The notes: generated by a model not told the origin, from the letters alone. A stretch of DNA of 64,000 nt from Gemmatimonadota bacterium (GCA_965116475.1 OZ220691.1:3488001-3552000); one strand, 5' to 3'. Counted from the first letter of the stretch, positions 19,546 to 53,921 are shown. Numbers and translations: made by a program.

Positions 19546-19559
19546 GGCGTGAAGGAGAT

Positions 19560-21742: not shown

Positions 21743-21754
21743 GCGGCCGGATTC

Positions 21755-22363: not shown

Positions 22364-22375
22364 GCTTCCGTTCGA

Positions 22376-23623
22376 ATGGAAACCGGGAAAGGATCTCGGC
22401 TGGCGGACATGGCCGCAGACACGGTGGAAGCGGCGATCGCGCGTATCCGCAGCGGCGGACTCGTGATCATCGCCGACGATGAAGATCGCGAGAACGAGGG
22501 GGACCTCGTCTGCGCGGCGGCGTTGGCGACGCCCGAGACGATCAACTTCATGGCCAGGCACGCCCGGGGACTCATCTGCCTCGCGATGCCCGATGAGATG
22601 GCCGATCGCCTCGATCTCCCGCTCATGACGGACGACCGGCTGGCCGATCCCAACAAGACGGCGTTCACCGTGTCGATCGATGCCCGCCAGGACTTCGGCG
22701 TGTCGACCGGGATCTCCGCGCAGGATCGCGCCCGGACCATCCGCGTCGCCGTGGATCCCCAGACGCGTCCCACGGACCTCATGCGTCCCGGCCACATCTT
22801 TCCGCTCCGCTCCCGGCCCGGCGGCGTGCTGCAGCGCGTGGGCCAGACGGAGGCGTCCGTCGATCTCGCCCGGCTCGCCGGACTCACCCCGGCGGGCGTG
22901 ATCTGCGAGATCCTCAACGAGGATGGGACGATGGCGCGCCGTCCGGAACTCGAGAAGTTCGCGGAGGAGCATGACCTTCCCTTCATCACGGTCGCTGCCC
23001 TCGTCTCCCACCGGTTGCGCACGGAGAGTCTCGTACGGCGCGTCGCCGAAGCGGACCTGCCCACGCCGTGGGGCGATTTCCGCATCGTCGGGTACGCGAA
23101 CGAGGTGGATGGGCGCGAACACGTCGCGCTGGTGCGCGGCGACGTGGCGGGTGCGGAAGATGTCCTCGTCCGCGTGCACTCGCGTTGCCTGACGGGCGAT
23201 GTGTTCCACTCGCACCGCTGCGACTGCGGCAGCCAGCTCGACGCCGCGATGCGGATGGTCGTGGAGGCCGGCGCCGGGGTCATCGTCTATCTCGACCAGG
23301 AAGGGCGGGGGATCGGGCTCCTGAACAAGCTCCGAGCCTACGAGCTTCAGGACGAGGGTCACGACACGGTCGAGGCGAACGAGGCGCTCGGCTTCCCGCC
23401 CGACCTGCGGAACTACGGCATCGGGGCCCAGATCCTCGTGGATCTCGGACTGCACTCGATCCGCGTCCTGACGAACAATCCGAAGAAGCTCGCGGGGCTG
23501 GAGGGGTTCGGCCTCGCGATCCGCGACCGCCTGCCGCTCGAGTTCGGCGGGGTCGACGACCGGGTGGTCCGCTATCTTCGCACGAAGCGCGAGAAGCTCG
23601 GACACCTGACCGGATCCGCGTGA
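22376..23623 (+). CDS. ribBA: DHBP synthase / GTP cyclohydrolase II
   Basis: DEDRENEGD, TGISAQDR, RVHSRCLTGD, CDCG, QEGRGIGL, TNNPKK. Confidence 0.96.
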   Translation: METGKGSRLADMAADTVEAAIARIRSGGLVIIADDEDRENEGDLVCAAALATPETINFMARHARGLICLAMPDEMADRLDLPLMTDDRLADPNKTAFTVSIDARQDFGVSTGISAQDRARTIRVAVDPQTRPTDLMRPGHIFPLRSRPGGVLQRVGQTEASVDLARLAGLTPAGVICEILNEDGTMARRPELEKFAEEHDLPFITVAALVSHRLRTESLVRRVAEADLPTPWGDFRIVGYANEVDGREHVALVRGDVAGAEDVLVRVHSRCLTGDVFHSHRCDCGSQLDAAMRMVVEAGAGVIVYLDQEGRGIGLLNKLRAYELQDEGHDTVEANEALGFPPDLRNYGIGAQILVDLGLHSIRVLTNNPKKLAGLEGFGLAIRDRLPLEFGGVDDRVVRYLRTKREKLGHLTGSA

Positions 23624-24144
23624 GAAGCGGGTCGGAACCTCCTCGCGGCGACGGCCCGGACGGCTTCACGCGCGGGCGTCTGAAGGAGTACGAGGGCGTG
23701 GCTTCGGGGAGCGGCCGGACGGTATGCATTCTCGTCAGCCGGTTCAACTCCCGGGTCACCGACCGCCTGCTGGAAGGCGCCGCGCGGACGGCGCTCGAAT
23801 GCGGCGTGGCCGAGGAGGATGTCGATATCGTGTACGTCCCCGGCGCCTGGGAACTGCCGCTCGCCGCGCGGCGAGCCGCCGCGCGCGGATACGCCGCCAT
23901 CGTCGCGCTGGGCTGCGTGATTCGCGGGGAAACCGCGCACTTCGACCACGTCAGCCGCGCGGCCACCGACGGCCTCGCAAGGGTACAGCTCGACGCGGGC
24001 GTGCCGGTCGGTCTCGGCGTGCTCACCCCGGACACGGTGGAGCAGGCACTCGCGCGGGCCGGCGGCGAACTCGGCAACGCCGGTGCGGAGGCCGCCCGCG
24101 CCGCGCTCCGCATGGCCGACCTCCACGAACGGCTGGGCGCGTGA
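23620..24144 (+). CDS. ribH: lumazine synthase (start uncertain)
   Basis: VSRFN, VPGAWELP, LGCVIRGETAHFDHV. Confidence 0.92.
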   Translation: MRSGSEPPRGDGPDGFTRGRLKEYEGVASGSGRTVCILVSRFNSRVTDRLLEGAARTALECGVAEEDVDIVYVPGAWELPLAARRAAARGYAAIVALGCVIRGETAHFDHVSRAATDGLARVQLDAGVPVGLGVLTPDTVEQALARAGGELGNAGAEAARAALRMADLHERLGA

Positions 24145-35480: not shown

Positions 35481-37403
35481 GTGAGCGAGGGCGCAAAGGA
35501 GGGCGTGAGCGAACGGCGCGGGATCGTGATCGGCACGGCCGGCCATGTGGATCACGGCAAGACCGCCCTCGTGCGGGCGCTGACGGGGATCGAGACGGAC
35601 CGCTGGCTGGAGGAGCGGAAGCGGGGACTGACGATCGACCTGGGCTTCGCGCGGCTCGACCTCGATCCCGGCCTGGAGACGGGGATCGTCGACGTCCCGG
35701 GGCATGAGGACTTCCTCAAGAACATGCTCGCCGGCGCCACGGGCATCGACGCCCTCCTCCTCGTCGTGGCGGCGGACGAAGGGCCGATGCCGCAGACGCA
35801 CGAACACCTTGCGATCGCGCGTCTCTTGAACATCCGGCGCGGGGTCGTCGCGCTTACGAAGCGCGACCGGGTGGATGAGGACTGGCTCGAGCTCGCGAGC
35901 GAGACGACCCGGGAAGTGCTGGATGAGGATCCCGCGCGGGCGTCATGGGAGATCGTGCCGGTCTCCGCCCTGACGGGCGACGGGATCGAGCCCCTGCGGG
36001 CCGCGCTGCGCAGATCGACGGCGGGGATCCGCGCGCGCCACGTCGATGACCGTTTTCGCCTCCCGGTCGACCGTTCGTTCTCGATCCGCGGTACCGGTAC
36101 CGTGGTGACCGGCACTGTGTGGAGCGGCGCCGTCCGCGTGGGCGACACCGTGAACGTTTTTCCCGGGGGTGACTCGGCCCGCGTGCGCGCGCTCCAGGTG
36201 CACGAAGACCCTCGTCGGCGCGTCACCGCCGGCCGCCGGTGCGCCGTCGCACTCGTCGGCGTCACGCCGGTCGCGGTGGAGCGGGGCAGCGTGCTCGTGG
36301 ACCCGTCCGAGTGGACGCCGAGCGAGCGTCTCGGCGTCCGGGTACGGGCGCTCGGGAGTCGCGACCGGCCTCTCCACCATGGACAGCGTCTCAGGGTCTA
36401 CCTGGGCACTCGTGAAGTCATGGCCCGGCTCCAAACGGTTGATCGCCGGCCCGTCGCACCCGGGGCGACTGCCTGGGCCGTGCTTGCCCTCGAGGCGCCG
36501 CTCCTCGCGCGGACCCGCGACCGGGCCATCCTCCGCTTCTACTCGCCGGTGACGACGATCGGCGGGATACGCGTGGCGGAACCGAACCCGCCGCCCGACT
36601 GGTCGGCGCGGACGGAAGCCTGGCGGCGGATTCTCGATGGCGCCCCGGCCGAGGCGGTCGGCGCGGCCGTAGCGCTGGAGGGCCTGCGCGGGCTCCCCGT
36701 CGCGACATCATCGATCCGCCTCGGATGGCGAGCTCCCACGCTCGAGACGGCCGCCGAGGAGGCCGGCTGCGTGCGCATCGGCGAGCGCTGGTTCGCCGCC
36801 GATGCGGTGGCGGAGGCCATGGAGGTCGTGGAGGAAAGCATGGCCCGCCTCCACGCCGCGGACCGCCGTGCCCCCGGCGTTTCGAAGGAGGCCGTGCGCT
36901 CGGCGATGGCGCCGGTCTGCGATCTCGCACTGGCGGAGACCGCCCTCCGCCGACTCCTCGCGGATCGTCGCCTCCTCGAGCGCGGCCCGCAGCTCGCGCT
37001 TCCGGGCCATGGGCCCCGCCTCACTCCGCGCGAGGAAGAGGGGCGCCGGCTACTCGCCGGGACGATCGAAGCCGCCGGGCTGCAGCCGCCGCTCGTCACG
37101 GAACTGGGGAAGACGGTGCACCTGGACCGTGCCGTGCTCGATGACCTTCTCCGGCTGCTGCAGGAATCCGGCATGACGAAGGCCGTGACGCCCGAACTGC
37201 ACGTCGCCGCCGGGGCTCTGGAGGCGATGGAGGCGCGGGTGCGAGAGCTGCTCGCCGATGGCGCGCCGGCCCCTCCCGCGCGGTTCAAGGAAGCGTTCGG
37301 GCTCTCCCGGAAGTACCTGATTCCGCTCCTCGAATACCTGGACCGGGAAGGCGTGACCCGTCGAACCGCGGAAGGGAGAGTTCTCGCCCGCCCGCCCGGC
37401 TGA
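35481..37403 (+). CDS. selB: selenocysteine-specific elongation factor (start may be GTG 35505)
   Basis: [31 protein letters not shown]-terminal [14 protein letters not shown] winged helix. Confidence 0.95.
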
Positions 37404-38427: not shown

Positions 38428-38795
38428 GGGGGCGACACGGCTTCGACGCGTGAACCGGAAGCCGCGGAAGCGTGCCGAGGTGCCCGGGGCCTCGTTAAAC
38501 ACCGGGAAACCTTTAGGTGCCAACGACGGTTTGGCTCTGGCTGCGTAAAACCACGTAGCCCGTCCCCGAGAGGTCCGGGCCCGAGGACCTCCCGACGGAC
38601 GTCGATGAATCGGGCTGGTCACCCCGGCGTGCCGTGAGCCGCGGGTGACGAGAGCACGGCGAGAGCCGCGCGCACGGCTGGTTTCGCAAGGGTTTGTTCG
38701 TGAACCCTCGCGGGACGAGACCTGATCACGGACTACGCACGTAGATGCCGTGGCGGATGGGCTCGCGGACGCGGGTTCGATTCCCGCCGCCTCCA
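38428..38795 (+). ncRNA. ssrA: tmRNA, tag peptide (A)ANDGLALAA* at 38519-38548
   Basis: 5' GGGGGCG pairs with 3' CGCCTCC-A including G3.U; T-arm GCGGG-TTCGATT-CCCGC; tag ends in ALAA; CCA not fully encoded. Confidence 0.95.
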
Positions 38796-38823
38796 CTATT
38801 GCCATGAGTGCAGTGCTCCGCCC

Positions 38824-42730: not shown

Positions 42731-42826
42731 GGGAGCGGATGGTGACTGGTGTCGCCTGCGGTCTTCAAAACCGTTACGGGGCGTTCGCGCGTCCCGGGTG
42801 GGTTCGATTCCCACACGTTCCCGCCA
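42731..42826 (+). tRNA. selC: tRNA-Sec (anticodon UCA)
   Basis: 6-bp D stem GGTGAC/GTCGCC, anticodon loop CTTCAAA, long variable arm, GTGGG-TTCGATT-CCCAC, G discriminator + CCA; selB nearby. Confidence 0.95.
42811..42826 (+). repeat. att core, left copy (3' end of tRNA-Sec)
   Basis: CCACACGTTCCCGCCA, identical to 53400-53415. Confidence 0.92.
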
Positions 42827-42848
42827 GATCATTAGCGAAGTGCTCTTA

Positions 42849-42903
42849 TAACAACGATTTACAGATGTTCAAGCGGGCGAGTACCCCACCGGGTACCCCA
42901 AAA
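42849..42903. promoter_or_regulatory. putative IHF site and integrase arm-type repeats, left end
   Basis: TAACAACGATTTA (1 mismatch to WATCAANNNNTTR); GTACCCCA at 42881 and 42893. Confidence 0.6.
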
Positions 42904-42916
42904 GTGGGAGTGTGAC

Positions 42917-43423
42917 GTGTCCGTGAGATCGCCCCTCCAAGACCCTGGGTCTTTCCGTTCATGGATTCAGGAGATGATCGAGGTGACCGGATTGGAGTGG
43001 GAGCCGAAAACGGTCCATGTCGTTCTCGCAGACCTTCCCTTGATCGCGAAGGCGACGTACTTCAACGCGTGGTTGGCGGGCCAGTTCTTCCGCGAAGATG
43101 ATGTGGGGTGGCTCTCGTCGGTGATCAGCGACATCGACCTGGAGTGGTGGCCGTTCGAGGAGAACGACCTTGGCGTTCTCCGACACCAGATCGAAAGCCA
43201 CTACAACGGCCAGTTTCCGCAAATCATGAGTGCTGCGCACGCGGAATGGACTACGTTCGCCGCCGATGTCCGCATGGCCTTCATCGCCTGCTTCACTGAC
43301 CACGGCTGCCGACGTTGCCCACCTTGGTGCCAAGCTCTCCGAGACGAGCTGGAGGCACGTGCGAACCCCAGCAAAGAACCCAATGACTCGGAGGGTGAGC
43401 CGGAAGCGCCGGCCTCTGGATAA
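42917..43423 (+). CDS. hypothetical cargo protein (start may be ATG 42974)
   Basis: Only credible + strand ORF in the element; CAGGAG before an internal ATG; converges on the structural operon. Confidence 0.6.
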   Translation: MSVRSPLQDPGSFRSWIQEMIEVTGLEWEPKTVHVVLADLPLIAKATYFNAWLAGQFFREDDVGWLSSVISDIDLEWWPFEENDLGVLRHQIESHYNGQFPQIMSAAHAEWTTFAADVRMAFIACFTDHGCRRCPPWCQALRDELEARANPSKEPNDSEGEPEAPASG

Positions 43424-43427
43424 GGAT

Positions 43428-43838
43428 CTACCCGCGCTTTCGCTGCCGGTCTTCGAGGGCAACCTCAGGATTGAGCCGGCGGCGGTCGATCCCGGCGAAA
43501 GGCCGGGTCTCTCCCGGCTGACGCTGGATGGCCAGCCACAGATCCGCCGCAGCGCGCCCGTACTTCTTCTCCAACCGCCCGCGCTTCAGCGCCAGCCTGG
43601 AGGCCTCCCGGCAGCGAGCGCAGAGACTGAAGTCCGCATCCTCGCGTTCCCGACCGCACCGGCACAGGCCGGCGGCACGGCGTGCTGCGTGGCTCTCGGC
43701 GATCGTGCCTCGATACGTTTCCCGGCAGGTCTTGCAGTAGATCCCGTGGGTGGCCGGAGCGCCGCCGCAGTTCGCACACAACCCATCGCGTTTCCAGCTG
43801 CGTCTCTTGTCCCGCACCCAGTCTGCGGCGTAGCTCAC
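43428..43838 (-). CDS. basic Cys-rich zinc-finger protein
   Basis: CANC...CKTC and CRC...CARC repeats; GTGA overlap with the upstream gene. Confidence 0.7.
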   Translation of the reverse strand: MSYAADWVRDKRRSWKRDGLCANCGGAPATHGIYCKTCRETYRGTIAESHAARRAAGLCRCGREREDADFSLCARCREASRLALKRGRLEKKYGRAAADLWLAIQRQPGETRPFAGIDRRRLNPEVALEDRQRKRG

Positions 43839-44188
43839 CTCGTGCGGGCTGCGAGCCTGGCGGCCTCGCTCTTCACGAGCGCGGTGGCGATGGCCTGACT
43901 GACGGCCTCCACGCCCTCGATGGATGGCTCCAGCCACTCGTACTTGCCCCCCAAGTGCTCGGCGACCTCGAGGAACAGGCCGGGGCGTTTGCCGGCTCCC
44001 ACGCGGGCCAACGTCGTGCTCACAACTTCGTAGGAGATCGAGCGGGCGGTCACACCCGTGTCCCTCGCGATCCGCCTGCGGGCGAACCTGACGACCTCCT
44101 CGGCCAGCTCCTCAACGATCTTCTCGGACATGCGGTCGAGCGCCCGATGGTGCTGCCGGAGGTTGGACTCGAACTTGACCGGCGTCAT
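43835..44188 (-). CDS. HK97 gp10-like neck/tail-completion protein
   Basis: A..DTG...RSI, FLE, WLEPSI pattern; ATGA overlap. Confidence 0.6.
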   Translation of the reverse strand: MTPVKFESNLRQHHRALDRMSEKIVEELAEEVVRFARRRIARDTGVTARSISYEVVSTTLARVGAGKRPGLFLEVAEHLGGKYEWLEPSIEGVEAVSQAIATALVKSEAARLAARTR

Positions 44189-44619
44189 ATCCCCAGCCTC
44201 TCCCGGATCGCCGCCGCCGAGTAGACGCGCGACCGGAAGACGATCCCGGCGTAACGGTGGCGACCGGCGTCGGCGATGTCCCAGCCGCCGGCGAGGGTGC
44301 GCCACGGGCCGCTCTGCAGGTCGGAGGTTCCAAGGTGGAAGCCGCGGAAGAATCGCTGGATGGCCTCGCGGACTTGGGCGGCGTCTCCCGGATCCCGGAA
44401 GGTCTCGACGGTGACGGCGACGCGGGCCAAGTAGCCCGGACTTTGGTCGATGGTCTCGAGGTCGCGGGAGCCGCCATCCTCCACAATGACGCGGATCTCG
44501 TCGGAGGTCTTCTCGAGTGGGCGCGAGGGCTGGCCGACGATCACGGTCACCACGTAATCCCCCGAGAACGCGGAGTCCAAACCGTCCCGAATCGTGGCCA
44601 GCACCTCGGCCTCAATCAT
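44185..44619 (-). CDS. putative tail terminator-like protein
   Basis: 144 aa alpha/beta pattern; position among neck genes (inference). Confidence 0.45.
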   Translation of the reverse strand: MIEAEVLATIRDGLDSAFSGDYVVTVIVGQPSRPLEKTSDEIRVIVEDGGSRDLETIDQSPGYLARVAVTVETFRDPGDAAQVREAIQRFFRGFHLGTSDLQSGPWRTLAGGWDIADAGRHRYAGIVFRSRVYSAAAIRERLGI

Positions 44620-44956
44620 CGATCTCCAGCCAGACCCGCACCGTGCCGCCGCGCTGAGGCTCGGCCTCGACCACCTTCCAGATCCGATCTCCGGACTCGA
44701 GCGTCACGTCCTCGGCGGTGACGTCACCCGTCCAGTCGCTGGGCATGAGATGGGCGGAGGTCTTCGATCTGGTCTCGCCGCCCGGCTGGGCGTCCTCGAA
44801 GAAGCGCGCCGAGGTGACGATGGCGCGCGTCTCGCGTGCCTCCAGTAGCGTTCCGGACATCTCCCTACCCATGGCGTCCAGCGCACCGCGTTCGCGCCGC
44901 GTGAGGGTCGCGGGGACGCCCAGCGCCTCGATCAGCGCGGGAGCCGGGGCTCTCAT
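44612..44956 (-). CDS. putative head-closure (head-tail joining) protein
   Basis: 114 aa beta-rich, D.TLESGDRIWKVV; follows portal with ATGA overlap. Confidence 0.5.
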   Translation of the reverse strand: MRAPAPALIEALGVPATLTRRERGALDAMGREMSGTLLEARETRAIVTSARFFEDAQPGGETRSKTSAHLMPSDWTGDVTAEDVTLESGDRIWKVVEAEPQRGGTVRVWLEIDD

Positions 44957-45984
44957 GCCAGTCCCGCCTTCTCCAGTGCCTCATCCAGAGACAGGCCGCT
45001 CTCGACGAACTGCTTCAGCGCGCGGCCTCGGGCGGCGAGATCGGACGCGGCGAGACCGCCGAAGGAGAACTCCAGCGAGGTCTCCAGCACGCGGGCGATC
45101 TCGTTCTGGACGCGCACTGCGACCGGCGCGACGCCGAGGAAGACGAACTGCCGGTAATCCTCCCTGCGCGTGGTCCCGTCTCCACCCGGCATCACGAGCG
45201 AAGCCGGGACGCCTGCGGCGCTGGCCACGGTCGAGATCGCATCGCGCCTCAGCGCGATCAGCGAGTCCGGAGGGTTCGCGCCCAGCCTGGCTGGCACGAG
45301 ATCGCGCCGTGGCGCTGAACCCGCGTCGCCCCAGCCGCCAGCTACGGTCTCCGTGAGGACGGTGCTCCCCTTGGCGTCTCGGATGTCGTCTCTGAGCGTG
45401 TCGAGATCGCTTGTCTCCGGTCCCTGCGGAACCGGGAGGAGATGGGCCGCCACGCCGCCGGCTTCTTGGCCCAGCCGCATCTCGAGGGCCGAGAGGAGAT
45501 CTCCCGAGAGACCGGCCAAGGGCGACAGGCTGCGCCACGGCTCGGCTGCTCGCGGTGCCCACATGAGGTGGATGACCGAGTCGCGAGGCATCCATCGCGT
45601 CTGGATCTTCGACGGGGCGGACGTGGTGACGTGGTACCGCCACGACGCGGGAGACGGGCCGCCCCAGACCGTCCAACTGCTCGCCACCGACAGCATCGGC
45701 GGGACGTCGAAGGCCAGGACGATCTCTCCCTGCAGGATGAGCTCCCGGCCGACGAGATCCAGCACCTCGGGCGTCACCAGCATCTTGGCGAGTTCGTCGC
45801 CCTCGACCTCGGCCGATGACAGCGCCCTCGCCCAGAGATCGCCGAGCGCCTGTGCGGTCCCGGTCTCGTTGACGCGACCTGCTGGGCTCTCGGAGCCGGA
45901 CGCCGACGCGGCGATCAGAGAGACCAGCGCATCGGTGTACGAACTCCGAACTTCCGCCGTCTTCCGCTGCCACGGGAGCCTCAT
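44953..45984 (-). CDS. phage portal protein (short HK97-like)
   Basis: ELILQGE, DSVIHL, WRSLSPL, VASAAGVPASLV, V.PVA..VQNEI.R.L. Confidence 0.78.
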   Translation of the reverse strand: MRLPWQRKTAEVRSSYTDALVSLIAASASGSESPAGRVNETGTAQALGDLWARALSSAEVEGDELAKMLVTPEVLDLVGRELILQGEIVLAFDVPPMLSVASSWTVWGGPSPASWRYHVTTSAPSKIQTRWMPRDSVIHLMWAPRAAEPWRSLSPLAGLSGDLLSALEMRLGQEAGGVAAHLLPVPQGPETSDLDTLRDDIRDAKGSTVLTETVAGGWGDAGSAPRRDLVPARLGANPPDSLIALRRDAISTVASAAGVPASLVMPGGDGTTRREDYRQFVFLGVAPVAVRVQNEIARVLETSLEFSFGGLAASDLAARGRALKQFVESGLSLDEALEKAGLA

Positions 45985-46286
45985 AGCGCGAGACCTCGGC
46001 GCTTGACCCACTGAGACAGCAAAGACGCCGCGCCAGACGCTCGCAGGGCAGCTCTGGAGGCCGCGACGTACTCGGTCTCCACGTCACCCACCCGGACGCG
46101 CCTGGCGGCCGCTGGGGCGTCTCTTAGGTACGCCGCCACCCGGATCGCGGCTTCGTTCTCCACCGCCGCAGGCGGTTCTCCCTCGCCGGTGTGTTTCTCG
46201 ACAAGACCGGCGGCGACCTCGGCAAGACGCGTTGCGTTGTCACCTCCCCCGAGGGCCGAGGCCACCACCGATCGCTCTACAGCCAT
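45981..46286 (-). CDS. head-tail adaptor (HK97 gp6/SPP1 gp15-like)
   Basis: 101 aa helical; PPAAVENEAAIRVAAYL, SGAASLLSQWVKRR; CAGGAGG RBS. Confidence 0.65.
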   Translation of the reverse strand: MAVERSVVASALGGGDNATRLAEVAAGLVEKHTGEGEPPAAVENEAAIRVAAYLRDAPAAARRVRVGDVETEYVAASRAALRASGAASLLSQWVKRRGLAL

Positions 46287-47215
46287 ATGCGCCTCCTGCG
46301 GCGGGCCGGGCGCGTGATCTCCAGCGGAGCGAGTTCTCCCGTTTCGCCGGTCACCAGCGCCAGCTCGATTGCGCGGACGTCCATCTCGGAGACGTCGTAG
46401 AGGTCTCCCGCGACCTCGGCCACCGAGGTCTCCTCCGGTGCCCACGGGCGCACGCTCCAGAATCCCGTCTCGGAGGAATCGAGGAAGGCGCGTCCGGCGT
46501 CGTTGTCGGTGATCTGGTCGATCTCGATCCGGAGTTCATCGTCGAGAACCCGGAGCCTCAGTCCGGCACCGGTGGCGGCGACCGGCTCGGAGAATCTTCC
46601 AGACATGAACGCCGTGATCGTCCGCCGTCCCTCGGCTGCCTCGCGGAGCGCTTTGTCCAGCGCCTTCCGCCCGATGCGGATCCGCGCACAGCCGGTCTTG
46701 CACCTGCACGGCAGCTGGCGGCCCAGCGGCACCCGACCGGAGACCCGCGTCCCGCCGATCGTGCGCCGGCGCAGCTCCACCCGGTTCGGAAACACCGGCG
46801 AATCCACCAATCCCAGACCGAGGAGACGTCCGCGCTCGATGACGCGGACTCCGCCCTCGGTCTGCTCGCTCAGCGCATCGAACTCGAGACTCGTGCCCGT
46901 GAGCTTCCCGGCGGCCACCAGCGCTCGGATCTCGGGCGTGATCTGCGCGCGGAACTCCATGCCGCCGGCGGTGGTGTCCCGGAACCGGAGAGAGCCCTCT
47001 GGGTGGAAGCTGGAGTCGATCCCATGTCGGAAGTCGTGCTGGACGTTCAAGAGGACGCGCACCTCGGACGCTGGCCCGAACGCGCCGGGCTCGAACCGCT
47101 CCCCAAGGCCGTGCGGCGTGTTCGCGGGCGGGGCGGTGATCCCGGGATCGAACACCATCCCGGAGATCTCGCCGGCGTCCGCGCTCAGCCCGGAGACGAA
47201 ACGGAACTCGCTCAC
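46277..47215 (-). CDS. HK97-type prohead protease with a second protease-like domain
   Basis: ERFEPGAF, LNVQHD (His), GTSLEF (Ser), LGLVDSPVFP; C-terminal half repeats the pattern. Confidence 0.78.
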   Translation of the reverse strand: MSEFRFVSGLSADAGEISGMVFDPGITAPPANTPHGLGERFEPGAFGPASEVRVLLNVQHDFRHGIDSSFHPEGSLRFRDTTAGGMEFRAQITPEIRALVAAGKLTGTSLEFDALSEQTEGGVRVIERGRLLGLGLVDSPVFPNRVELRRRTIGGTRVSGRVPLGRQLPCRCKTGCARIRIGRKALDKALREAAEGRRTITAFMSGRFSEPVAATGAGLRLRVLDDELRIEIDQITDNDAGRAFLDSSETGFWSVRPWAPEETSVAEVAGDLYDVSEMDVRAIELALVTGETGELAPLEITRPARRRRRIWL

Positions 47216-47454
47216 CAGAGGGCGAGGATCGTGGCCGTCGAGGAGGCGCGCACCGCCGAGACGGCGACCGGAATCACCATGATCGACGCCGTCACTGTGA
47301 GCGCCGGCGCGTCCGCATCATCGTCCGGCAACCGGATCGTCAGATCGCCGTCGCTGAGGACGATGAACGCCCGCGCCGGGGGATCGAACACGCTCTCCTG
47401 CCCGGCGACGGTCGCCTCGCTCGCCTGCGCCGAGTAGATGGCCCAACGGCTCAA
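47212..47454 (-). CDS. head spike base / decoration protein, RcGTA Rcc01079-like
   Basis: 80 aa; PARAFIVLSDGDLTIRL...IPVAVSAVRASSTATILALW; TTGA overlap with the capsid gene. Confidence 0.6.
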   Translation of the reverse strand: MSRWAIYSAQASEATVAGQESVFDPPARAFIVLSDGDLTIRLPDDDADAPALTVTASIMVIPVAVSAVRASSTATILALW

Positions 47455-48692
47455 GTGACGAACTTCAGCCTGGCGAAGTTGGACGCCCGCGGGAGCTTGA
47501 ATCCCCAGCTGTACTGCAACGTCAGCGAGATCTCATCCGAGGCTGCCTTGGTGTATGGATCTCGAATCAGCCGGCCCTCCCGCCAGACGCACGCGACGCC
47601 GGCGTTCACGATCCCGCGCTTGCGTCCGATGAAAGCGCCGAACTTGCCGTTCGATGTGGCCGTCTCGATGTCGCCGCGCACCATCCAACTGAGGCCGTTC
47701 GCCATCAGGAATTGCCTCAGCGTCATGTTGTCGGCGGCCGAGTTGATGACGGTGGAGTGCCACAACGTGTTCGCGCCGACGGAGGCCACGATCGCCAGAT
47801 CTCCGGGGCTGGCGGCGTGCTTTCCGTCGATCAGCTCGGCGAACTTCACCAGCGTCTCCGGCCCCTTGATCTTGTCCGCCTGCTTGATCGTCTTCTCGAC
47901 CATGTCGGCGGCGGTCTGGAGACCGGTGATGTCGGCGGCGTTCTCGTTCGCCCCGTCGTCTCCCAGGAAGACCGCGCGGTCGATCCCCTCGGCCATCGCC
48001 ATCCGCAGATCGCGCCGGAGCGCCTGCTCGAGGCCGGGGATCCTGTCCGCGTCGACGCCGTTGAACACGGCGCGTGCGCGGTTGCCGGTCGGCTTGATCT
48101 CGGTGACGCCGATCGTCCACGCGGCGTCTGCCGCGTCCTCGGCCCGGCCGCGCTGCGCCGCCGAGGCCCCCGCCGTCGTGACCGGGTAGCTCGCGATCCC
48201 CGGCGCGCAGGAGGCGAACGTCACGCCCAGATGCATCGCGGCGGTGTCAGCGAACAGCCGGTCGATCCATGGGCGCTGGACGACCGTCGACTCGGCGTCC
48301 GTCGAGGCGCGAACCTCGGCTGGCGTCGGCTCGTCGAGAAGGAGCTCCAGCGGGAATGACCGGCGGCCCATGCCGAACGCGTCGTTCAGCTCGCCGGCGG
48401 CTCCGTCCACGCCGCGTCCGTCCATCGCGGCCTCGAAGTAGCCGCCCACGTCCACCCGGCGGCGAATGGCCCGGATCTCGGCCGCCTCGCCGTCCTCCAC
48501 TGTGGGCTCCGGCTCCTCGGCCTGCGCGGCGATCAGCGCCCGGCGCTTGGTCTCGACGGAGCGCAGCTCGGCGGTGAGCTTGTCCACCTCCTGCTGCTGC
48601 TCGTCGGAGAGATCTCCGGCGGTCTGGCCGAGATCGTTGAGTTGCTGCCGGAGCTCGGACGAACGGAGCTCGGCGCGTTGCAGATCGGTCAT
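47451..48692 (-). CDS. major capsid protein, HK97 fold with N-terminal delta domain
   Basis: Coiled-coil N-terminus; E.ALRRDL..AMAE.IDRAVFLGDDG...ITGL; LIRDPYT. Confidence 0.85.
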   Translation of the reverse strand: MTDLQRAELRSSELRQQLNDLGQTAGDLSDEQQQEVDKLTAELRSVETKRRALIAAQAEEPEPTVEDGEAAEIRAIRRRVDVGGYFEAAMDGRGVDGAAGELNDAFGMGRRSFPLELLLDEPTPAEVRASTDAESTVVQRPWIDRLFADTAAMHLGVTFASCAPGIASYPVTTAGASAAQRGRAEDAADAAWTIGVTEIKPTGNRARAVFNGVDADRIPGLEQALRRDLRMAMAEGIDRAVFLGDDGANENAADITGLQTAADMVEKTIKQADKIKGPETLVKFAELIDGKHAASPGDLAIVASVGANTLWHSTVINSAADNMTLRQFLMANGLSWMVRGDIETATSNGKFGAFIGRKRGIVNAGVACVWREGRLIRDPYTKAASDEISLTLQYSWGFKLPRASNFARLKFVT

Positions 48693-48810
48693 TCTCTCGT
48701 CCCTTCGCGCGGCCAGGCAGCCACGCTCCTTCCGGGACGAAGAAGGGCCGCCATAGCTCAGTTGGTGCGTTCTCCAATTCGCTAAGGCGACCCCGAAAGG
48801 TCTCCGCAAT

Positions 48811-49050
48811 TTAGGGTCCGGCCAGCTCCTCTACAAGCTGCCTCCAGCCGGCGTCTTCCTCCCGTCGGTGGCGGGCGAAATGGCACGAGACGCAGAGCGT
48901 CCGGAGGTTCGATGGATCGTCGGTGCCGCCGTCTCTCAGTGGCGTCTCGTGGTGGACCTCGAGCCGTCCTGGCTGGCCGCAGTCCCGGCAGCGGTGGCCG
49001 TCTCTCTGGAGGATCTTCCGGCGCAACTGAGCACCGGCGCGGCCTCTCAG
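48811..49050 (-). CDS. HNH endonuclease (terminase-associated); start codon unclear
   Basis: RDGHRCRDCG...LEVHH..PL..GG.DD..NL..LC..CH...H. Confidence 0.85.
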   Translation of the reverse strand: MRGRAGAQLRRKILQRDGHRCRDCGQPGRLEVHHETPLRDGGTDDPSNLRTLCVSCHFARHRREEDAGWRQLVEELAGP

Positions 49051-50519
49051 ACGACGGCGGATCGAAGTCTCCGAGACGGACGGGACCGACGCCGATGCGC
49101 CTCGGCGACGCACAAGGCCAACGCCACGGCGAGATCGTCTCTGCGCCGGAGGGTGGTACGGCGGATCTTGGCGTTCCCGGCCTCGTCCGTAGCCGTCTTG
49201 GCGTTCGCCAGGCACACCCTCAGGGCGAGATTCGTTGGTGCGGCCAGCCAGTCTGCAGCGGCAAGCCGGAGGCGGCGCAGATCGTTCGCGCCGTCCTTGA
49301 AACCCATCCCGCGCAGCTTCAGCGGCACCGACTGACCGAGCGTGGCCAACGCCTCGCGGATCGAGGCCTCCCGCCACCGGTCGGCTACGATCATCGCCGG
49401 GACGCCCCACCGCTCGAACGCCTCGGTCAGCACACCCCCGACATCGACCTCGAACGTCCCGTGCAGGGACAGCTCCTTCCTGGCTCGCATCTTCTCATAC
49501 AGGGAGCCGACGTTGTGCTCCTTTCCGCGCCGCATGAGGTCTGGATCTCGCGGGAAGACCAGAAAGCCGTCCGCGGCTCCCGTGGCCGGCCAGCAGACGG
49601 CCGCGCCGGTGGCCTGCGTGGTGGAGAGATCGAGACCGAGCACCGGGCGACCCGAGCGCAGCGCAGTCCGTCCCTCGCAGCGCGTCCACGTCCCGGCGGA
49701 CAAGACCTGCTCCTCGGCTACGCCGATCCCGCCGAGGTTCAAGTGGAGCTGCAGGTATCTGGCCAGCGCCTCGGGACTCTCTCTGGCCAGCTTCGCCTGC
49801 TTCTTCACCTCGCGGGCGAGGTGCGGCCAGAACTTCATCGATGGATTCGCTCTGTGCATGGCCGCCGCGCGAAATGGATCCTCGTCTTCCTCGGCCGCGT
49901 AGCAGATCGCCCGCTCCTTCTGGAGTTCGGCCTCGAAGGGATGGCCGGAGCCTGCCGGCGGTCGCGTCCCGGTGTAGATGATCCGCGCCTCCATCTTGGC
50001 CTTCGCCGTGTCGAGCGCGGCGATCATCTCGTCCACCGTTGGCCAGCTCGTGACCTCGTCGCAGACGATGAGCGCGGGCCGCAGACCCATGGCGCGCTTC
50101 GGGTCGCTTCCGATGGCCAACACCCGGCGGCCCGTCTTGAGGTCTCGGATCTCCGAATGCTGGAGGCTGTCGGCGATCCTGTACCGCTTCCGGTCTCCCA
50201 GCTTCACTACCTGCTCCAGATACCGGCGGGTGTCTTGGTAGACGATCCGCGTCTGCCGGTGGCTCGCGGCGACGAGAATGATGTCGGAGCCCTTCGGGGC
50301 TAGCTCCAGAACGGGATCGAAGTACGCTCCCGCCACGATTGACGCCCAAGCGCTTTTTCCGTTGGCGCGGGCCATGCTCAGCGCGAAGTCGCCGGGAGTA
50401 TCGAGACGCTTCCACGCTTTTCTCTGCCACGGCATCGGCTGGAGCGCCCTCCCGGCCATCGGACCGTCCAGAACGGTCAGACCAGATGCCCACCGGGAAA
50501 CCTTCGTCGAGGTCAACAT
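49047..50519 (-). CDS. terminase large subunit
   Basis: Walker A ARANGKS, Walker B LIVCDE, ANPS, nuclease VLGLDLS, ADRWR, DDLAVAL. Confidence 0.9.
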   Translation of the reverse strand: MLTSTKVSRWASGLTVLDGPMAGRALQPMPWQRKAWKRLDTPGDFALSMARANGKSAWASIVAGAYFDPVLELAPKGSDIILVAASHRQTRIVYQDTRRYLEQVVKLGDRKRYRIADSLQHSEIRDLKTGRRVLAIGSDPKRAMGLRPALIVCDEVTSWPTVDEMIAALDTAKAKMEARIIYTGTRPPAGSGHPFEAELQKERAICYAAEEDEDPFRAAAMHRANPSMKFWPHLAREVKKQAKLARESPEALARYLQLHLNLGGIGVAEEQVLSAGTWTRCEGRTALRSGRPVLGLDLSTTQATGAAVCWPATGAADGFLVFPRDPDLMRRGKEHNVGSLYEKMRARKELSLHGTFEVDVGGVLTEAFERWGVPAMIVADRWREASIREALATLGQSVPLKLRGMGFKDGANDLRRLRLAAADWLAAPTNLALRVCLANAKTATDEAGNAKIRRTTLRRRDDLAVALALCVAEAHRRRSRPSRRLRSAVV

Positions 50520-50618
50520 ACCGGAGGCTCTGCTGCAGAAGCGTGACTACGCCAACGGTGTCCGGCGGTCACGGAGGGCTCCGAACAGGGGTCCCCGAGG
50601 AGCTGGGGCGGGCCACAT

Positions 50619-51065
50619 TCATTCGCCCGGCAGGCGCGGTACGTAGACGGCCCATAGCCACGGCGCTCCGTCACGGCGCGCGGCCGTCACGCGATGTCGT
50701 CCAAGCAGCACTTCAACCGGGCGCGAACTATCGTCGCCCAGGACGACGATCGGCGGGCCGTACTGACCACCGGACAGGTTCTGGAGCCGCTTCTCGTCCA
50801 AGCGCGATACGTCGAATTCCATGATGCGAGTCAGCGGTAGCCCTCTCCTTGGGAGCGTCTCCGACATCGCCTCCATGATCCGCGTCTTCGTGTTGGCGAC
50901 AGCCGCCGCCACGTCCGGCCAGTCTTCAGCGGTAGTGTCTTGCTCTTCGAGGAACCACCGCTCCAACCGGCGAAACCAACGGAGCAATTCGTCGGCTTCG
51001 CAGTCTTCACCTTGCAGCCGGTTCTCCACTTGGTCCCGGTATCGGAGGATGCTGGTATTGGACAT
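50619..51065 (-). CDS. protein with a C-terminal ParB/Sulfiredoxin-like domain
   Basis: PPIVV...VLLGRHRVTAA resembles the PI.V...DG.HR..A motif; TGATG overlap. Confidence 0.6.
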   Translation of the reverse strand: MSNTSILRYRDQVENRLQGEDCEADELLRWFRRLERWFLEEQDTTAEDWPDVAAAVANTKTRIMEAMSETLPRRGLPLTRIMEFDVSRLDEKRLQNLSGGQYGPPIVVLGDDSSRPVEVLLGRHRVTAARRDGAPWLWAVYVPRLPGE

Positions 51066-51400
51066 CACCCCAGACCGTACTCGTCCCACGCATGGACGAT
51101 CTCGAAGAGCGCACCGATCTCAGACTTCGTGAGCGCCCGGAGGTCGTCCAATCCACCGTCACCTTCGACCGACTTTGGTATCAGACGCCCGAGTTCGCCC
51201 GCCCACTCCAGCAGCTGCGCGACCGACACGCCGTGCCGTTCACAGCGCCCGTACACGTAGTACACCTGCTTCTCGGTTGGTGACTCCGGGTGCAACGCAT
51301 TCTTCGCGATGATCGTCTTATCTGTGGACTCTACCGCATCCCGCCAGCTCCCTGTGGGCTGCCCAGAGCTGCCGTTGTCTCCCTCACGTGTCCCTGTCAT
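51065..51400 (-). CDS. hypothetical protein, first gene after the long leader
   Basis: Strong GGGAGGAG RBS before ATG 51400; PTEKQ and LTKSEIGAL motifs. Confidence 0.65.
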   Translation of the reverse strand: MTGTREGDNGSSGQPTGSWRDAVESTDKTIIAKNALHPESPTEKQVYYVYGRCERHGVSVAQLLEWAGELGRLIPKSVEGDGGLDDLRALTKSEIGALFEIVHAWDEYGLG

Positions 51401-51875
51401 CGATCTCCTCCCTCTCTCCAGTCGCCGGGGCGCACCTCTCCCTATTTTGTTCTCGGCCTCGCCGGTTCTCCCTCTAATTGTCTGAAGCGATGACCGGCCC
51501 GGTGAGGGACAGCAGCAGACCGAGGGCCAGCCCGGGCCGTTGCGAAAGGGAGGCATGGTTTCGTCTCCCACGGTATCCGAGTTGGTGTCTCGGCCTGCTG
51601 AACATGACCTGGCGGAGCCGGGCATAGCAGGCTGTGGGAGCTGCTTCCCTCCGGCCTCTCGACCGGAGCCAGCCGCCTCGCTCTCCCACTTCGACCTCGA
51701 GGCCTCATCTCGGCGCTATTGGCTGGATGCCCTTCCCGGTGCGCCACTCTCTCGCATTCCCGCGCCGGTGGGTGGACCCTCTCCTCCACGGTTCAGCGTT
51801 CCAACGATCCCACGCATAACACGACCGGCCGATTCTCGCCAATGGTTCGGTCAGCGTCGGAGGATGTGAATCATG

Positions 51876-51938
51876 GATGCAAGAAACCCCGAGACGAGAG
51901 GTCTTTTGGGAGAGCTTCGCCTCGGGGCTTCCTGCACC
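51876..51938 (-). other. 22-bp RNA hairpin downstream of the integrase (terminator or regulatory RNA)
   Basis: All four non-Watson-Crick positions are A.C on the + strand, i.e. G.U on the - strand transcript. Confidence 0.7.
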
Positions 51939-51973
51939 GGCCCAAGGAAGAATCCTCGAGCGCGTCCACAATC

Positions 51974-53197
51974 TCAGTCGCTTGTCACCGGCGCAACGTA
52001 CTCGGCCCATGCCTCCATCACCGGACGCCGACGCTCGAGGAGATCGCTGCGCTGGTAGGCCCGCACGACGGCGTTTCGCTCGACATGACCGAGGATCGCC
52101 TCGGCCACTGCGAAATCGACGCCCGTATCTTCACACCAACTGCGCATGGAGGTTCGCAAACCGTGCGGCGTGGCCGGGACGTCGAGACGCCTGAGGAGCT
52201 GGAGAAACGCCATCTTGCTGAGGGGCCGATCAGCGCCAGCGCGCGGGCGAGAGGAAGGGAAGACCCAACCGGTCCCGCCCCAGCGCGCCTGGGCGTCTTC
52301 TAGCACCCTCAGGGCGCAATCTGCGAGCGGTACGCGGTGAGACCTACCTGACTTCGTCCGGAGGCTCGGAATCGTCCAGATCGCGTTCTCCAGGTCGATC
52401 TCGTCCCACGTCATCTCTCGGACCTCGCCGGTCCGAACTCCCGTCAGCGCCAAGAACGTGAACGCCGAGCGCGTCACGCGGTCGGCGGTGGACGCCTCGA
52501 CCATCTCGAGCAGGCCGGCGATCTCGCTGTGGTGCAGGGCCGGGTGGTGACGCTTCACGCGGCTGGCGTGACGCGGCAGCACCGTGAGGAGGTGGCGGCC
52601 CGCCGGGTTGTCGGTTCGGTGTCCCATCGCGACGGCCATCTCGAACGTCCTGGCCAGCCGAGCGCGGACCCTCCGGGCGGTCTCCTGCTTCTCCTCCCAG
52701 AAGCCGCGGGCCTGAAGCACCCGCGCCACGTCGGCGGACGTCACCTCGTCAACGCGCATCGCGAGCAGCGGATCGGCGTATCTGGTCACCGAGTTTCGCC
52801 ACTGGCGCTCGCTATCGGGAGACCTCCAGCGGGGTTTCTCCCGGGAGATCACCGCCTCGAAGACCTCGCCCACCGTCGGGACGACCCCCTTCGGCTGCTC
52901 GGTGGCCGGAGGCTTAGCCTTCCGCCGGCGCGGATCCTCTCCGGCTTCGACCGCCGCGAAGTTCCGGAACGCCTGTTCTCGGGCCTCCCTGAGGCTCACC
53001 GCCGGCCACGTTCCCAAGCCGAGGGTGGTTTGCTTGCCGTTGATCTTCACCTTCTGTATCCACCGGCGTCTGGCGGTTCGGTCCGACGTGGGCCGGACGA
53101 GGAGTGAAAGGCCGGCGTATCCGACGGCGTACTTTCGTGGGCCGCCTAGCGTCCCGATCTTCTTCTCGGTGAGGCGCACCAAGGGGCGTTTCGGCAT
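51974..53197 (-). CDS. int: tyrosine integrase, P4-like with N-terminal arm-binding domain
   Basis: GLG.WPAVSLREAR arm domain; TGVRTGE, HRVPL, HGLR, ILGH, AYQRSD catalytic motifs. Confidence 0.95.
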   Translation of the reverse strand: MPKRPLVRLTEKKIGTLGGPRKYAVGYAGLSLLVRPTSDRTARRRWIQKVKINGKQTTLGLGTWPAVSLREAREQAFRNFAAVEAGEDPRRRKAKPPATEQPKGVVPTVGEVFEAVISREKPRWRSPDSERQWRNSVTRYADPLLAMRVDEVTSADVARVLQARGFWEEKQETARRVRARLARTFEMAVAMGHRTDNPAGRHLLTVLPRHASRVKRHHPALHHSEIAGLLEMVEASTADRVTRSAFTFLALTGVRTGEVREMTWDEIDLENAIWTIPSLRTKSGRSHRVPLADCALRVLEDAQARWGGTGWVFPSSRPRAGADRPLSKMAFLQLLRRLDVPATPHGLRTSMRSWCEDTGVDFAVAEAILGHVERNAVVRAYQRSDLLERRRPVMEAWAEYVAPVTSD

Positions 53198-53215
53198 GGG
53201 GATCTCCGTTCGCTA

Positions 53216-53347
53216 TGGGGTACTCGTGCCTGCGAGTACCCCAAAACATGCCCCAAGTACCCCAAACTCGCAACTCTAGAGGAGGCATGGAGTTCCGCAT
53301 GAACATCCGACAACAGGTTCCGTATAATACATGATATCAACGAGTTG
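53216..53347. promoter_or_regulatory. integrase arm-type repeats, putative outward sigma70 promoter and IHF site, right end
   Basis: AGTACCCCA once inverted and twice direct in 53216-53266; TGAACA-17-TATAAT at 53300-53328; TATCAACGAGTTG at 53335-53347 matches WATCAANNNNTTR. Confidence 0.65.
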
Positions 53348-53390
53348 TGAATCATCCAGAAGTCCAATGAACATCAAGGGATTCGCGATT

Positions 53391-53921
53391 GTGCGATCAC
53401 CACACGTTCCCGCCACCCTCGTGCTTGCGGCCGCGCTTCTGTCCGGGCTGGCCCTGGACCCGTTGCCGCTGCGCGCGCAGGATCCGCCGCCTCCCGTCGT
53501 CCCCGACTCGGCCGCCGCCGAAACGAGCCCTGTCGCCGACACGACGGGCCGGCGCCCGCCCATCTCCCCCCTCGGCGCCTTCGGACGCTCCCTGGTCCTT
53601 CCGGGCTGGGGACAACTGGAGGTCGGACGCCCCGCCCGCGGCGCTTTCTACTTCGCCGCCGAGTCCGTCTTTCTGTTCATGGTCTTCAAGTCCGACGCGC
53701 GGCTCTCCGCCGCGAAGGAGGAGATGCCGCCGAACGAAGAGCGGATCTCCAACCGCACGGGGCAGCGGGAGAACTGGATCGTTCTGGCCGGGTTCTTCGC
53801 CTTCCTGAGCGGCCTCGACGCCTGGGTGTCCACGCAGTTCTGGGACTTCGAGCCCTCGATCGGTCCGCCCGCCGATGGGTCCGTCGGGATCGCGCTCGGT
53901 TTCAAGGTCGATTTCCCCTGA
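53391..53921 (+). CDS. exported/membrane protein, DUF5683-like (start uncertain: GTG 53391 or 53421)
   Basis: Signal peptide-like N-terminus; SP..A..RSLVLPGWGQ; LDAWV. Confidence 0.7.
   Translation: MRSPHVPATLVLAAALLSGLALDPLPLRAQDPPPPVVPDSAAAETSPVADTTGRRPPISPLGAFGRSLVLPGWGQLEVGRPARGAFYFAAESVFLFMVFKSDARLSAAKEEMPPNEERISNRTGQRENWIVLAGFFAFLSGLDAWVSTQFWDFEPSIGPPADGSVGIALGFKVDFP
53400..53415 (+). repeat. att core, right copy
   Basis: CCACACGTTCCCGCCA duplicates the tRNA-Sec 3' end. Confidence 0.92.

Follow-up and report, generated by a model that had tools for sequence, protein, structure and literature searches.

Introduction

Phage-inducible chromosomal islands of the capsid-forming type (cf-PICIs) encode capsid, protease, portal, connectors, an HNH endonuclease and the small and large terminase subunits (TerS and TerL), carry no tail genes and obtain only tails from their helper phages (10.1101/2022.09.08.507074). 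Here, we describe a 10.6-kb element at the tRNA-Sec gene of a Gemmatimonadota bacterium that resembles cf-PICIs in gene content and that we consider, with a probability of roughly 0.7, to be a capsid-forming, tail-dependent satellite of a new lineage. The element lies in a stretch of 64,000 nucleotides (GCA_965116475.1 OZ220691.1:3488001-3552000), hereafter called the window, and positions are counted from its first letter. What is new is a smaller, cross-phylum lineage; the concept of the capsid-forming satellite was known already, including forms without a replicase.

The available parts of the cited papers give the following picture. The cf-PICIs have three origins, and in Proteobacteria their order is capsid, protease, portal and connectors, followed by hnh-terS-terL (10.1101/2022.09.08.507074). 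They release T=4 capsids (47.5 nm, 15.5 kb) that are filled with DNA but tail-less; these attach to tails from various phages, and the adaptor and the connector determine which tails are compatible (10.1101/2025.02.11.637232). SatelliteFinder models cf-PICIs by 11 core components, at least nine of which have to be found with the model's own hidden Markov models (HMMs), and forbids tail and holin genes; the median size is 14 kb, and Type A occurs only in Proteobacteria, the other variants in Firmicutes (PMC10085698). The Streptomyces satellites MulchRoom and MiniFlayer encode their own TerL, portal, major capsid protein (MCP), adaptor and HNH without a recognizable primase/replicase; MulchRoom is described as having no tail genes, and helper-dependent replication is proposed for both by the authors (PMC10690885). 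According to these sources, capsid-forming satellites are so far known from Proteobacteria, Firmicutes and this one Streptomyces system (PMC10085698, PMC10690885). Among other integrative satellites, VEIMEs (virion-encapsidated integrative mobile elements) combine integrase, AlpA and primase modules, the vast majority being described as free of capsid-like genes and as packaged in concatemers in helper heads (10.1101/2022.07.26.501625), and PICMIs (phage-inducible chromosomal minimalist islands) are described as encoding no capsid-remodelling genes. A description of the lineage presented here was not found in the literature; the tables that supplement the papers on cf-PICIs and SatelliteFinder, which were not covered, might list such taxa.

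An Intact Integrative Unit at the tRNA-Sec Gene

The element is intact, has defined boundaries and brings along its own integrase and putative arm-type sites as well as genes for a head, a neck and a packaging motor (Table 1). A preliminary description of this DNA had claimed perfect 16-bp att repeats with a predicted circle of 10,589 bp, an integrase with its catalytic motifs, gene overlaps of 4–10 nt and an intact bounded unit as opposed to prophage debris, and all of this is borne out. The tRNA-Sec gene is left intact by the element, whose ends carry exact att 16-mers spaced by 10,589 bp. Even with up to two mismatches allowed, the 16-mer has only these two copies in the window, and in none of 100 shuffles were there two or more. 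The repeat lengthens to 22/25 nt. The octamer GTACCCCA occurs eight times in the window compared with 0.47 expected, and five of the eight copies are clustered at the two ends of the element, at most about 200 bp away, as expected of arm-type sites for an integrase with an arm-binding domain. In the integrase, which matches Phage_integrase, the motifs GVRTGE, TKSGRSHRV, HGLRTS, LGHVE and VRAYQ are all present; we take them to hold the catalytic Arg, Lys, His-x-x-Arg, His and Tyr, respectively.

With one exception, the genes flanked by the repeats are on the minus strand, and the coding density is 89.4%. From the MCP gene to the last gene, the operon has eight overlaps of 4, 4, 10, 4, 4, 8, 4 and 4 nt and forms one translationally coupled unit in which the core open reading frames (ORFs) are full length. 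The biggest gap, between integrase and operon, probably holds a promoter or regulatory region and is also a candidate site for an origin or a packaging signal. A terminator-like hairpin is found 3′ of the integrase gene (51899-51887) and promoter-like hexamers for this gene at 53351-53324, just beyond the GTACCCCA copies on the attR side.

Table 1. Features of the tRNA-Sec element and of its target gene, in window coordinates.
Feature	Position	Strand	Evidence or remark
tRNA-Sec (selC), integration target	42731..42826	+	ARAGORN; Rfam RF01852, 79.7 bits
attL core	42811..42826	+	Last 16 nt of tRNA-Sec
Putative arm-type integrase sites, attL side	42878..42900	+	Two tandem 11-mers containing GTACCCCA
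o168, 168 aa	42917..43423	+	Coding-like codon-position G+C
Cys-rich Zn-ribbon protein, ~136 aa, last operon gene	43428..43838	-	ESM Atlas lead to DZR_2 (double zinc ribbon), score 0.94; 4-nt overlap with gp10-like gene
HK97 gp10-like neck/tail-completion protein (Neck1/Tc)	43835..44188	-	PF04883 9.1e-5, above cutoff; phrog_5 1.7e-4
o144, 144 aa, neck-protein position	44185..44619	-	Strong signal in G+C at third codon positions (GC3); overlaps both neighbors
Head-closure protein Hc1	44612..44956	-	phrog_82 2.8e-5
Portal, 343 aa from ATG at 45984 (longest ORF to 46011)	44953..45984	-	PF04860 3.8e-10, above cutoff; phrog_12; TIGR01537 weak
gp6-like head-tail adaptor (Ad1)	45981..46286	-	Iterated family HMM
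Prohead serine protease, S78 type, 312 aa	46277..47215	-	Family alignment A3; TIGR01543 0.0063
o80, 80 aa, between MCP and protease	47212..47454	-	NF048002 sub-threshold
MCP, 413 aa, helical N-terminal delta-like region	47451..48692	-	phrog_10, phrog_617 (1e-5 to 1e-6)
HNH endonuclease	48811..49113	-	PF01844 3.3e-12; phrog_589 2.4e-20
TerL, ATPase and nuclease	49047..50519	-	PF03354, PF20441; phrog_9 2.5e-44
o156, 148 aa, N-terminal three-helix region and C-terminal ParB/sulfiredoxin (Srx)-fold domain	50619..51065	-	AlphaFold2 (AF2) pLDDT 92.8
o111, 111 aa, first operon gene, strong Shine-Dalgarno upstream	51065..51400	-	No family match (Pfam, PHROGs, NCBIfam)
Non-coding stretch, int to operon, 573 bp	51401..51973		No ORF with coding-like codon-position G+C; repeats present
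Tyrosine integrase, arm-binding N-terminal domain	51974..53197	-	PF00589 1.2e-21, PF22022 (Phage_int_M), PF13356 (Arm-DNA-bind_3); phrog_1 4.8e-53
Putative arm-type sites, attR side	53216..53266		Three GTACCCCA copies, one inverted
attR core	53400..53415	+	Exact copy of tRNA-Sec 3′ end

Head, Neck and Packaging Genes

Functions were assigned by scanning the window ORFs (15–17) against Pfam, PHROGs, NCBIfam and PADLOC and, where single sequences fell short, by family alignments. For TerL, the single solved homolog is the terminase large subunit 6z6d_A in the PDB (7.5e-14), which we take to be the HK97 enzyme, and identity to phage records does not exceed 25%. The start of the adjoining HNH gene is uncertain, with a GTG at 49113 giving 100 aa and a TTG at 49026 giving 71 aa. 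The protease is of a long form with an inserted domain and a conserved C-terminal RRRRxWL tail. It is an S78 prohead protease with the His/Ser pair by way of the family alignment A3 (the window copy and 16 relatives), in which His60 and Ser109 are invariant and 13 of the 17 members match Peptidase_S78 (PF04586); the window copy itself is below the threshold, and its sequence alone had no match in the PDB. The iterated HMM of the adaptor Ad1 collects 34 homologous ORFs at the same position in related loci, and some of these match PF05135, phrog_40 or phrog_442. The portal is likewise conserved across the family.

The MCP has 1183 database homologs, and PF05065 was matched by two of them. Identity is 84% for the nearest (P0002, on a 6.8-kb contig) and about 60% for the next. 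Neither the MCP nor the portal had a match in a tblastn search of 50,697 phage records.

A Family of Related Elements in Several Phyla

A genome scan with the MCP alignment as query and one genome per species returned 47 syntenic loci in metagenome-assembled genomes (MAGs) labeled Alpha-/Gammaproteobacteria, Longimicrobiales/Gemmatimonadota, Chloroflexota, Acidobacteriota and Binatia. Genes in these loci were called by a GC3-based heuristic, by which short genes may be missed or mis-started. Most sufficiently long loci have a common order of int, a stretch of 2–3 kb, TerL, HNH, MCP, protease, Ad1 and portal. In L015 and L039, TerL-HNH follow the portal, which amounts to the same order because the excised element is a circle.

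Eighteen of the loci are bounded by direct repeats of 13–56 nt that include a tRNA 3′ end. The 14 bounded loci without an insertion sequence (IS) measure 9,488–10,917 bp; adding the window copy gives 15 elements with a median of 10,499 bp. The other four reach 12.2–13.3 kb because of IS insertions carrying IS21 (IstA/IstB) or IS4/5-type transposase genes (L006 15629-18132; L017 5945-8313; L018 3482-3856 and 6496-6945; L031 7703-9043), and these copies are possibly beyond packageable size. A limit set by capsid volume would produce such a narrow size range across phyla.

Tail tube, tape-measure, baseplate and lysis families were found in none of the 18 bounded relatives. Several of them have extra neck proteins, namely Neck1/tail-completion proteins in L009 and L031, a neck terminator in L031, a head-completion protein in L037 and a Mu gp37-like protein in L029 with a homolog in L014 (cluster C23). 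The extra neck genes also include one in L001, where a P2 gpS-like virion morphogenesis (tail-completion) gene (15944-16591, minus strand; PF05069, 7.6e-27) is located at the far element end on the opposite strand, adjoining tRNA-Lys (16806-16881). In the binatial L043, a Phd/YefM antitoxin gene (15063-15368) lies just past the portal end.

The family is under purifying selection: for MCP, TerL, portal and protease, each of the 51 pairs with 70% identity or more has a ratio of nonsynonymous to synonymous substitution (dN/dS, NG86) of 0.09–0.36. Copy number can be high. One alphaproteobacterial MAG contains seven loci (L018, L019, L025, L029, L035, L036 and L037; contigs CBDDDJ010000002, -4 and -5), among which L035 is a tandem pair with TerL at 809 and 8263. 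Not all of these copies are closely related in the MCP tree, with L025 and L029 being placed elsewhere, which suggests repeated acquisition. Among the 120 MCP homologs listed, the longest contig is 9.0–11.5 kb for 28. One of seven short contigs checked has a terminal overlap (L028, VXPN01000429.1, 9,023 bp; 19 nt, exact), which is too weak for calling it circular. The coverage in its title, 200, is several times that in the other SPAdes-style titles listed, and L028 may be an excised or circular copy. In the plasmid collection, the MCP had one weak match (25.5% identity) on a 1.58-Mb Pseudorhodobacter replicon.

In a quick MCP tree, from which L038 (in-frame stop) and five loci with partial MCP matches were left out, several well-supported groups mix phyla, e.g., the acidobacterial L010 and the gemmatimonadotal L044 with 100% support. 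The Gemmatimonadota sequences do not form one group, and the window copy sits on a long branch that the tree leaves unresolved. In the acidobacterial L010, a tRNA-SeC gene (15180-15276) is located about 5 kb beyond the element, with peptidase, hydrolase and symporter genes in between, and this may be coincidental; a second tRNA-Sec insertion was considered here and dropped, because host-like genes intervene and no att repeat was found.

Degree of Reduction

In the window ORFs, the family scans recognized no tail tube, tape measure, baseplate, lysis, primase/replicase, AlpA, repressor or TerS gene, in agreement with the preliminary description. Because six ORFs are without an assigned role (o111, the ParB/Srx-fold protein o156, o144, the Zn-ribbon protein, o80 and the plus-strand o168), a module that is absent here is one that is not recognizable. 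Of the 18 bounded relatives, eight have AlpA/HTH_17 genes in the interval from int to TerL and 12 have a recognizable replication gene there; in six, no replication gene is recognizable. Among the loci, these replication genes encode an AAA_25 primase-helicase/DnaB-like protein (L005, L012, L023 and L047), an HTH_36/RepO-like protein (L008, L009, L014, L017, L018, L026 and L027) or a Replicase family protein (L029). Because relatives carry AlpA and replication genes, the ground plan of the family is that of a cf-PICI, and by its recognizable genes the window copy is among the family's most stripped-down members rather than a separate type. Calling the element a new type, as was done initially, was hence too strong in view of both these relatives and the replicase-less capsid satellites already published. 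The preliminary description had also proposed an even more reduced satellite or a unit like a gene transfer agent (GTA): a stripped-down head-forming satellite is the more probable reading, whereas the likeness to GTAs is not supported, given the integrase, the att and arm-type sites, the self-sized genome and the presence of up to seven loci per MAG. Two chloroflexotal loci (L026 7674-8096 and L027 7696-8118) have a gene directly upstream of TerL that matches phrog_289 'GTP-binding domain' at about 1e-10 and is another non-canonical occupant of the TerS position.

The window copy might still be the functionally complete equivalent of a cf-PICI, with o111, o156, the Zn-ribbon protein and o144 serving as regulator or excision factor, TerS and replication initiator and with an origin in the 573-bp gap. 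TerS and initiator proteins are very divergent, and several positions fit: o111 comes directly after int, where relatives have AlpA; o156 lies directly upstream of TerL in the TerS position, and its homologs in L007 and L024 stand beside the portal, which adjoins TerL on the excised circle; and Zn-ribbon homologs adjoin replication genes and TerL in L014, L025 and L029. However, o111 aligns with the AlpA-like proteins of the relatives at an hhalign probability of 0.2%, the ParB/Srx fold of o156 is not a TerS fold and its homologs are found in 2 of the 47 loci. No ORF of the size of a helicase or primase fits, with the largest gap being 573 bp, and six of the bounded relatives are likewise without a recognizable replication gene. 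We regard a hidden complete set as a real possibility toward which we do not lean. It bears on nothing but the reduction of the window copy and does not conflict with a capsid-forming, tail-dependent satellite.

Proposed Life Cycle and Alternative Explanations

As a capsid-forming, tail-dependent satellite, the element would be induced by a helper phage, upon which the integrase would excise the 10,589-bp circle. MCP, portal and protease would build a small procapsid that the protease matures. On the analogy of HK97-type cos phages and cf-PICIs, TerL and HNH would cut and package the genome at unit length. The portal would then be sealed by the adaptor, closure and neck proteins, giving rise to DNA-filled tail-less heads that would become infectious on joining helper-made tails, with the helper also supplying lysis. 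Given that no replicase, AlpA or TerS is recognizable, the window copy would borrow replication and induction from the helper or the host, or else use the unrecognized o111, ParB/Srx and Zn-ribbon proteins.

Several points weigh against this interpretation. HK97-type packaging normally needs TerS, which is unrecognized in the window and in all 18 bounded relatives, and replicase and AlpA are unrecognized in the window copy. In four of six further loci (L003, the Longimicrobiales copy, L010, L034 and L044), the ORFs have no Pfam match for AlpA or replication either. Structure modeling does not establish an HK97 fold for the MCP: from the 30-sequence alignment A1, AF2 gave a poor model (pLDDT 51.5, pTM 0.26), which we use as a weak hint only. 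The Foldseek matches of this model are weak (best E 0.024) and are nearly all HK97-fold capsids; against the PDB, Foldseek gave no match at E ≤0.001, and the A1 profile matched no PDB sequence. The dN/dS values speak for the family and not for the window copy, which contributes no close DNA relative. Misbinning may underlie taxon labels where the MAG contig is short, but several loci are on contigs of Mb scale. Finally, six ORFs are without an assigned role, the element is known from its genes alone, and we infer every step after excision.

Heads or circles that spread without a phage tail, for example by vesicles, by natural transformation after lysis or by a delivery device among the unmatched proteins, would do without a helper altogether. 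No helper is visible in the window, the six ORFs without an assigned role leave room for such a device, and the MCP/portal clade has no counterpart in sequenced phages. Yet the full set of adaptor, closure and gp10-like neck proteins is kept, whose only known role is tail docking, and no receptor-binding, lysis or membrane protein was recognizable with Pfam, PHROGs, NCBIfam and PADLOC. Moreover, in the available descriptions the experimentally studied analogs need phage tails. We give helper-independent spread little credence.

Similarly improbable is a GTA-like unit that has been domesticated and serves the cell by packaging host DNA; we see a slight chance of it at best. A small head module without replication genes, the sub-threshold match of o80 to a spike-base family of the Rhodobacter capsulatus GTA (RcGTA) and the many relatives in Alphaproteobacteria speak for it. 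The integrase, the exact tRNA att sites and the arm-type sites, in contrast, mark a mobile element, and so do the many tRNA targets and the up to seven loci per MAG, including one tandem pair. The narrow unit size fits self-packaging, phyla are mixed in supported groups of the quick MCP tree with the Gemmatimonadota sequences not grouping together, and the tail genes that RcGTA-type clusters carry are absent.

A deletion remnant of a full prophage that has lost tail, lysis and replication modules is largely refuted, as far as genomics can exclude it and as the preliminary description had held: prophage decay often ends in head-only gene sets and no replicase or regulator is recognizable, but the 18 bounded relatives have the same content within a narrow size range at different tRNA genes and in different phyla, none with tail genes or fragments, the core ORFs are full length, translationally coupled and, family-wide, under no relaxed selection, the att cores are exact with arm-type motifs at both ends, and the lack of MCP and portal matches among the phage records leaves no full-phage parent in sight.

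For the capsid-forming, tail-dependent satellite, the strands can be combined into one more far-reaching scenario, which we put forward as speculative and on balance unlikely in its entirety. The family would be an independently evolved, ancient head-only lineage that moves across phyla by using the tails of unrelated phages. Copies of the window type would be true satellite viruses that need helper or sibling elements for replication, induction and tails, and the ParB/Srx protein would possibly mark DNA for TerL/HNH.

The main interest lies at the level of the family, with its phylum breadth, copy number, compactness, orphan capsid/portal clade and lack of a recognizable TerS. Apparently, a compact 10-kb capsid-forming strategy is in use in Gemmatimonadota, Chloroflexota, Acidobacteriota, Binatia and many uncultured Alpha-/Gammaproteobacteria. 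If active, these elements would make up a large and so far overlooked avenue for gene transfer in uncultured bacteria. They would further be a test case for the minimum needs of a head-building parasite and for 'tail piracy' across phylum boundaries. Genome annotation should avoid classing loci of this sort as defective prophages.

Proteins Without Family Match and Genomic Surroundings

The ParB/Srx-fold protein o156 shares the motif PIVV...DGRHRVxAAR with 26 homologs, and the C-terminal half of the model superposes on ParB N-terminal and sulfiredoxin domains among solved structures and phage proteins (Foldseek). It is encoded directly upstream of TerL, and its HMM matches ORFs just after the portal in two of the 47 loci (L007 and L024). 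Judged by the modeled fold, o156 is a candidate DNA-recognition or packaging accessory protein. An assignment as TerS was rejected on the grounds of the ParB/Srx fold, the lack of any TerS-like match and the few loci with homologs.

For o111, the database search returned the same 111-aa ORF and, on a contig of 9,996 bp, one homolog with 81% identity; the ESM Atlas was uninformative (scores ≤0.82). A role as regulator or excision factor is possible from its position. An identification with AlpA was rejected after the hhalign comparison with alignment A4 of the AlpA-like relatives, and a shadow ORF (51442-51789) was likewise negative as an AlpA-like candidate by hhalign. The Zn-ribbon protein has homologs in L014, L025, L029, L042 and L045, the first three being those next to replication genes or TerL.

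The small o80 matches NF048002, the RcGTA Rcc01079 spike base family, with an E-value of 6.9e-5 and 23.1 bits, below the cutoff of 28 bits, and has no homolog in the 47 loci. On this similarity it is possibly a capsid spike-base or decoration protein. The position held by o80 in the window is taken in L013 (11234-11665) and L031 (11231-11668) by a P-loop kinase-like gene (AAA_33) for about 145 aa between MCP and protease; the L013 copy has a weak match to phrog_4581 'small terminase'. Neither o144 nor o168 has a match in Pfam, PHROGs or NCBIfam, and PDB sequence searches gave chance-level results only. No homolog of o168 exists in the 47 loci, and it is a putative accessory (cargo) gene. PADLOC found no defense family in nine ORFs.

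Outside the element, the window contains housekeeping genes only. Its arginyl-tRNA synthetase is 87–93% identical to proteins of Gemmatimonadota/Candidatus Palauibacter, and the flanking lptE and mla genes fit a diderm host. The genes selB (35481-37403), tmRNA (38428-38796; tag ANDGLALAA; ARAGORN, Rfam) and tRNA-Sec all lie within 7 kb. A 668-aa ORF at 5418-7424 is an EPSP synthase (aroA) fused to a cytidylate kinase (cmk). Three long minus-strand ORFs at 19203-24126 (455, 1124 and 184 aa, chosen by GC3) have no Pfam match at 1e-5 and may be shadow ORFs or genuinely novel proteins.

Comparison With Known Systems

By function, 8 of the 11 cf-PICI components of SatelliteFinder are recognizable in the element, one short of Type C when judged without the HMMs of the model, and so a full component match is absent, as the preliminary description had presumed. 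An integrase is present and tail and holin genes are not, while a regulator (AlpA, MerR or Stl type), a primase-replicase and a small terminase were not found in the window copy. The host had been placed outside the lineages of cf-PICIs, and this is correct insofar as Gemmatimonadota stand against the Proteobacteria and Firmicutes in the available text on SatelliteFinder (PMC10085698).

The Streptomyces satellites, compared by their available description, differ from the element: they encode TerS and a scaffolding protein, they have direct terminal repeats and a low G+C content, and their helpers are virulent. MiniFlayer, furthermore, is without integration and has a short tail fiber (PMC10690885). 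VEIMEs and PICMIs are, like the window family, integrative satellites of uncultured or marine bacteria.

With HK97-type cos phages, the element has in common TerL homology, HNH, an S78 His/Ser protease, a Phage_portal portal and gp6-like and gp10-like neck proteins. It differs from them in the missing tail, lysis, replication and immunity modules, in a genome of about one quarter of the size and in its permuted gene order. GTAs encode tails and are not known to have an integrase or att sites or to package themselves (see also the available text of PMC9662315). A likeness to RcGTA is seen in the small head, the sub-threshold spike-base match of o80 and the many alphaproteobacterial relatives; in contrast to RcGTA, a single locus inherited vertically, the window family has an integrase, att and arm-type sites and a self-sized genome, has no tail genes and is mobile, with multiple copies at different tRNA targets.

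The most instructive comparison is that with the cf-PICI prototype EcCIEDL933 (E. coli O157:H7 EDL933 chromosome, NZ_CP008957.1, 1680329-1694760). Both elements encode a tyrosine integrase, MCP, an S78/HK97-type protease, portal, adaptor, closure, HNH and TerL, and both are without tail or lysis genes. The MCP gene comes before those for protease and portal, which inverts the order usual in phages and agrees with the proteobacterial cf-PICIs described. Relatives of the window element resemble cf-PICIs in that int and the packaging module are separated by AlpA and primase-helicase genes. However, only int, TerL, protease and HNH are similar to those of EcCIEDL933, and this at the superfamily level (integrase 22% identity; TerL 23%, 4e-8; protease family HMM from A3, 1.3e-24; HNH family HMM, 6e-11). 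The A1 family HMM of the MCP matched no EcCIEDL933 protein at E ≤10, with an hhalign probability of 0.65%, the portal reached a BLASTP E-value of 0.13, and the adaptor showed no similarity. Unlike in EcCIEDL933, TerL-HNH come before the head genes and Ad1 before the portal, there is no P27-type TerS, and AlpA and pri-rep are missing from the window copy. The element is also smaller, with 10.6 kb (family median 10.5 kb) compared with 15.5 kb for EcCIEDL933 and a cf-PICI median of 14 kb as given in the available text, and in contrast to known cf-PICIs the hosts of the family include Gemmatimonadota, Chloroflexota, Acidobacteriota and Binatia. Judged by the homology of its capsid module, the family lies outside the EcCIEDL933 lineage, while in its predicted way of working it is like a cf-PICI.

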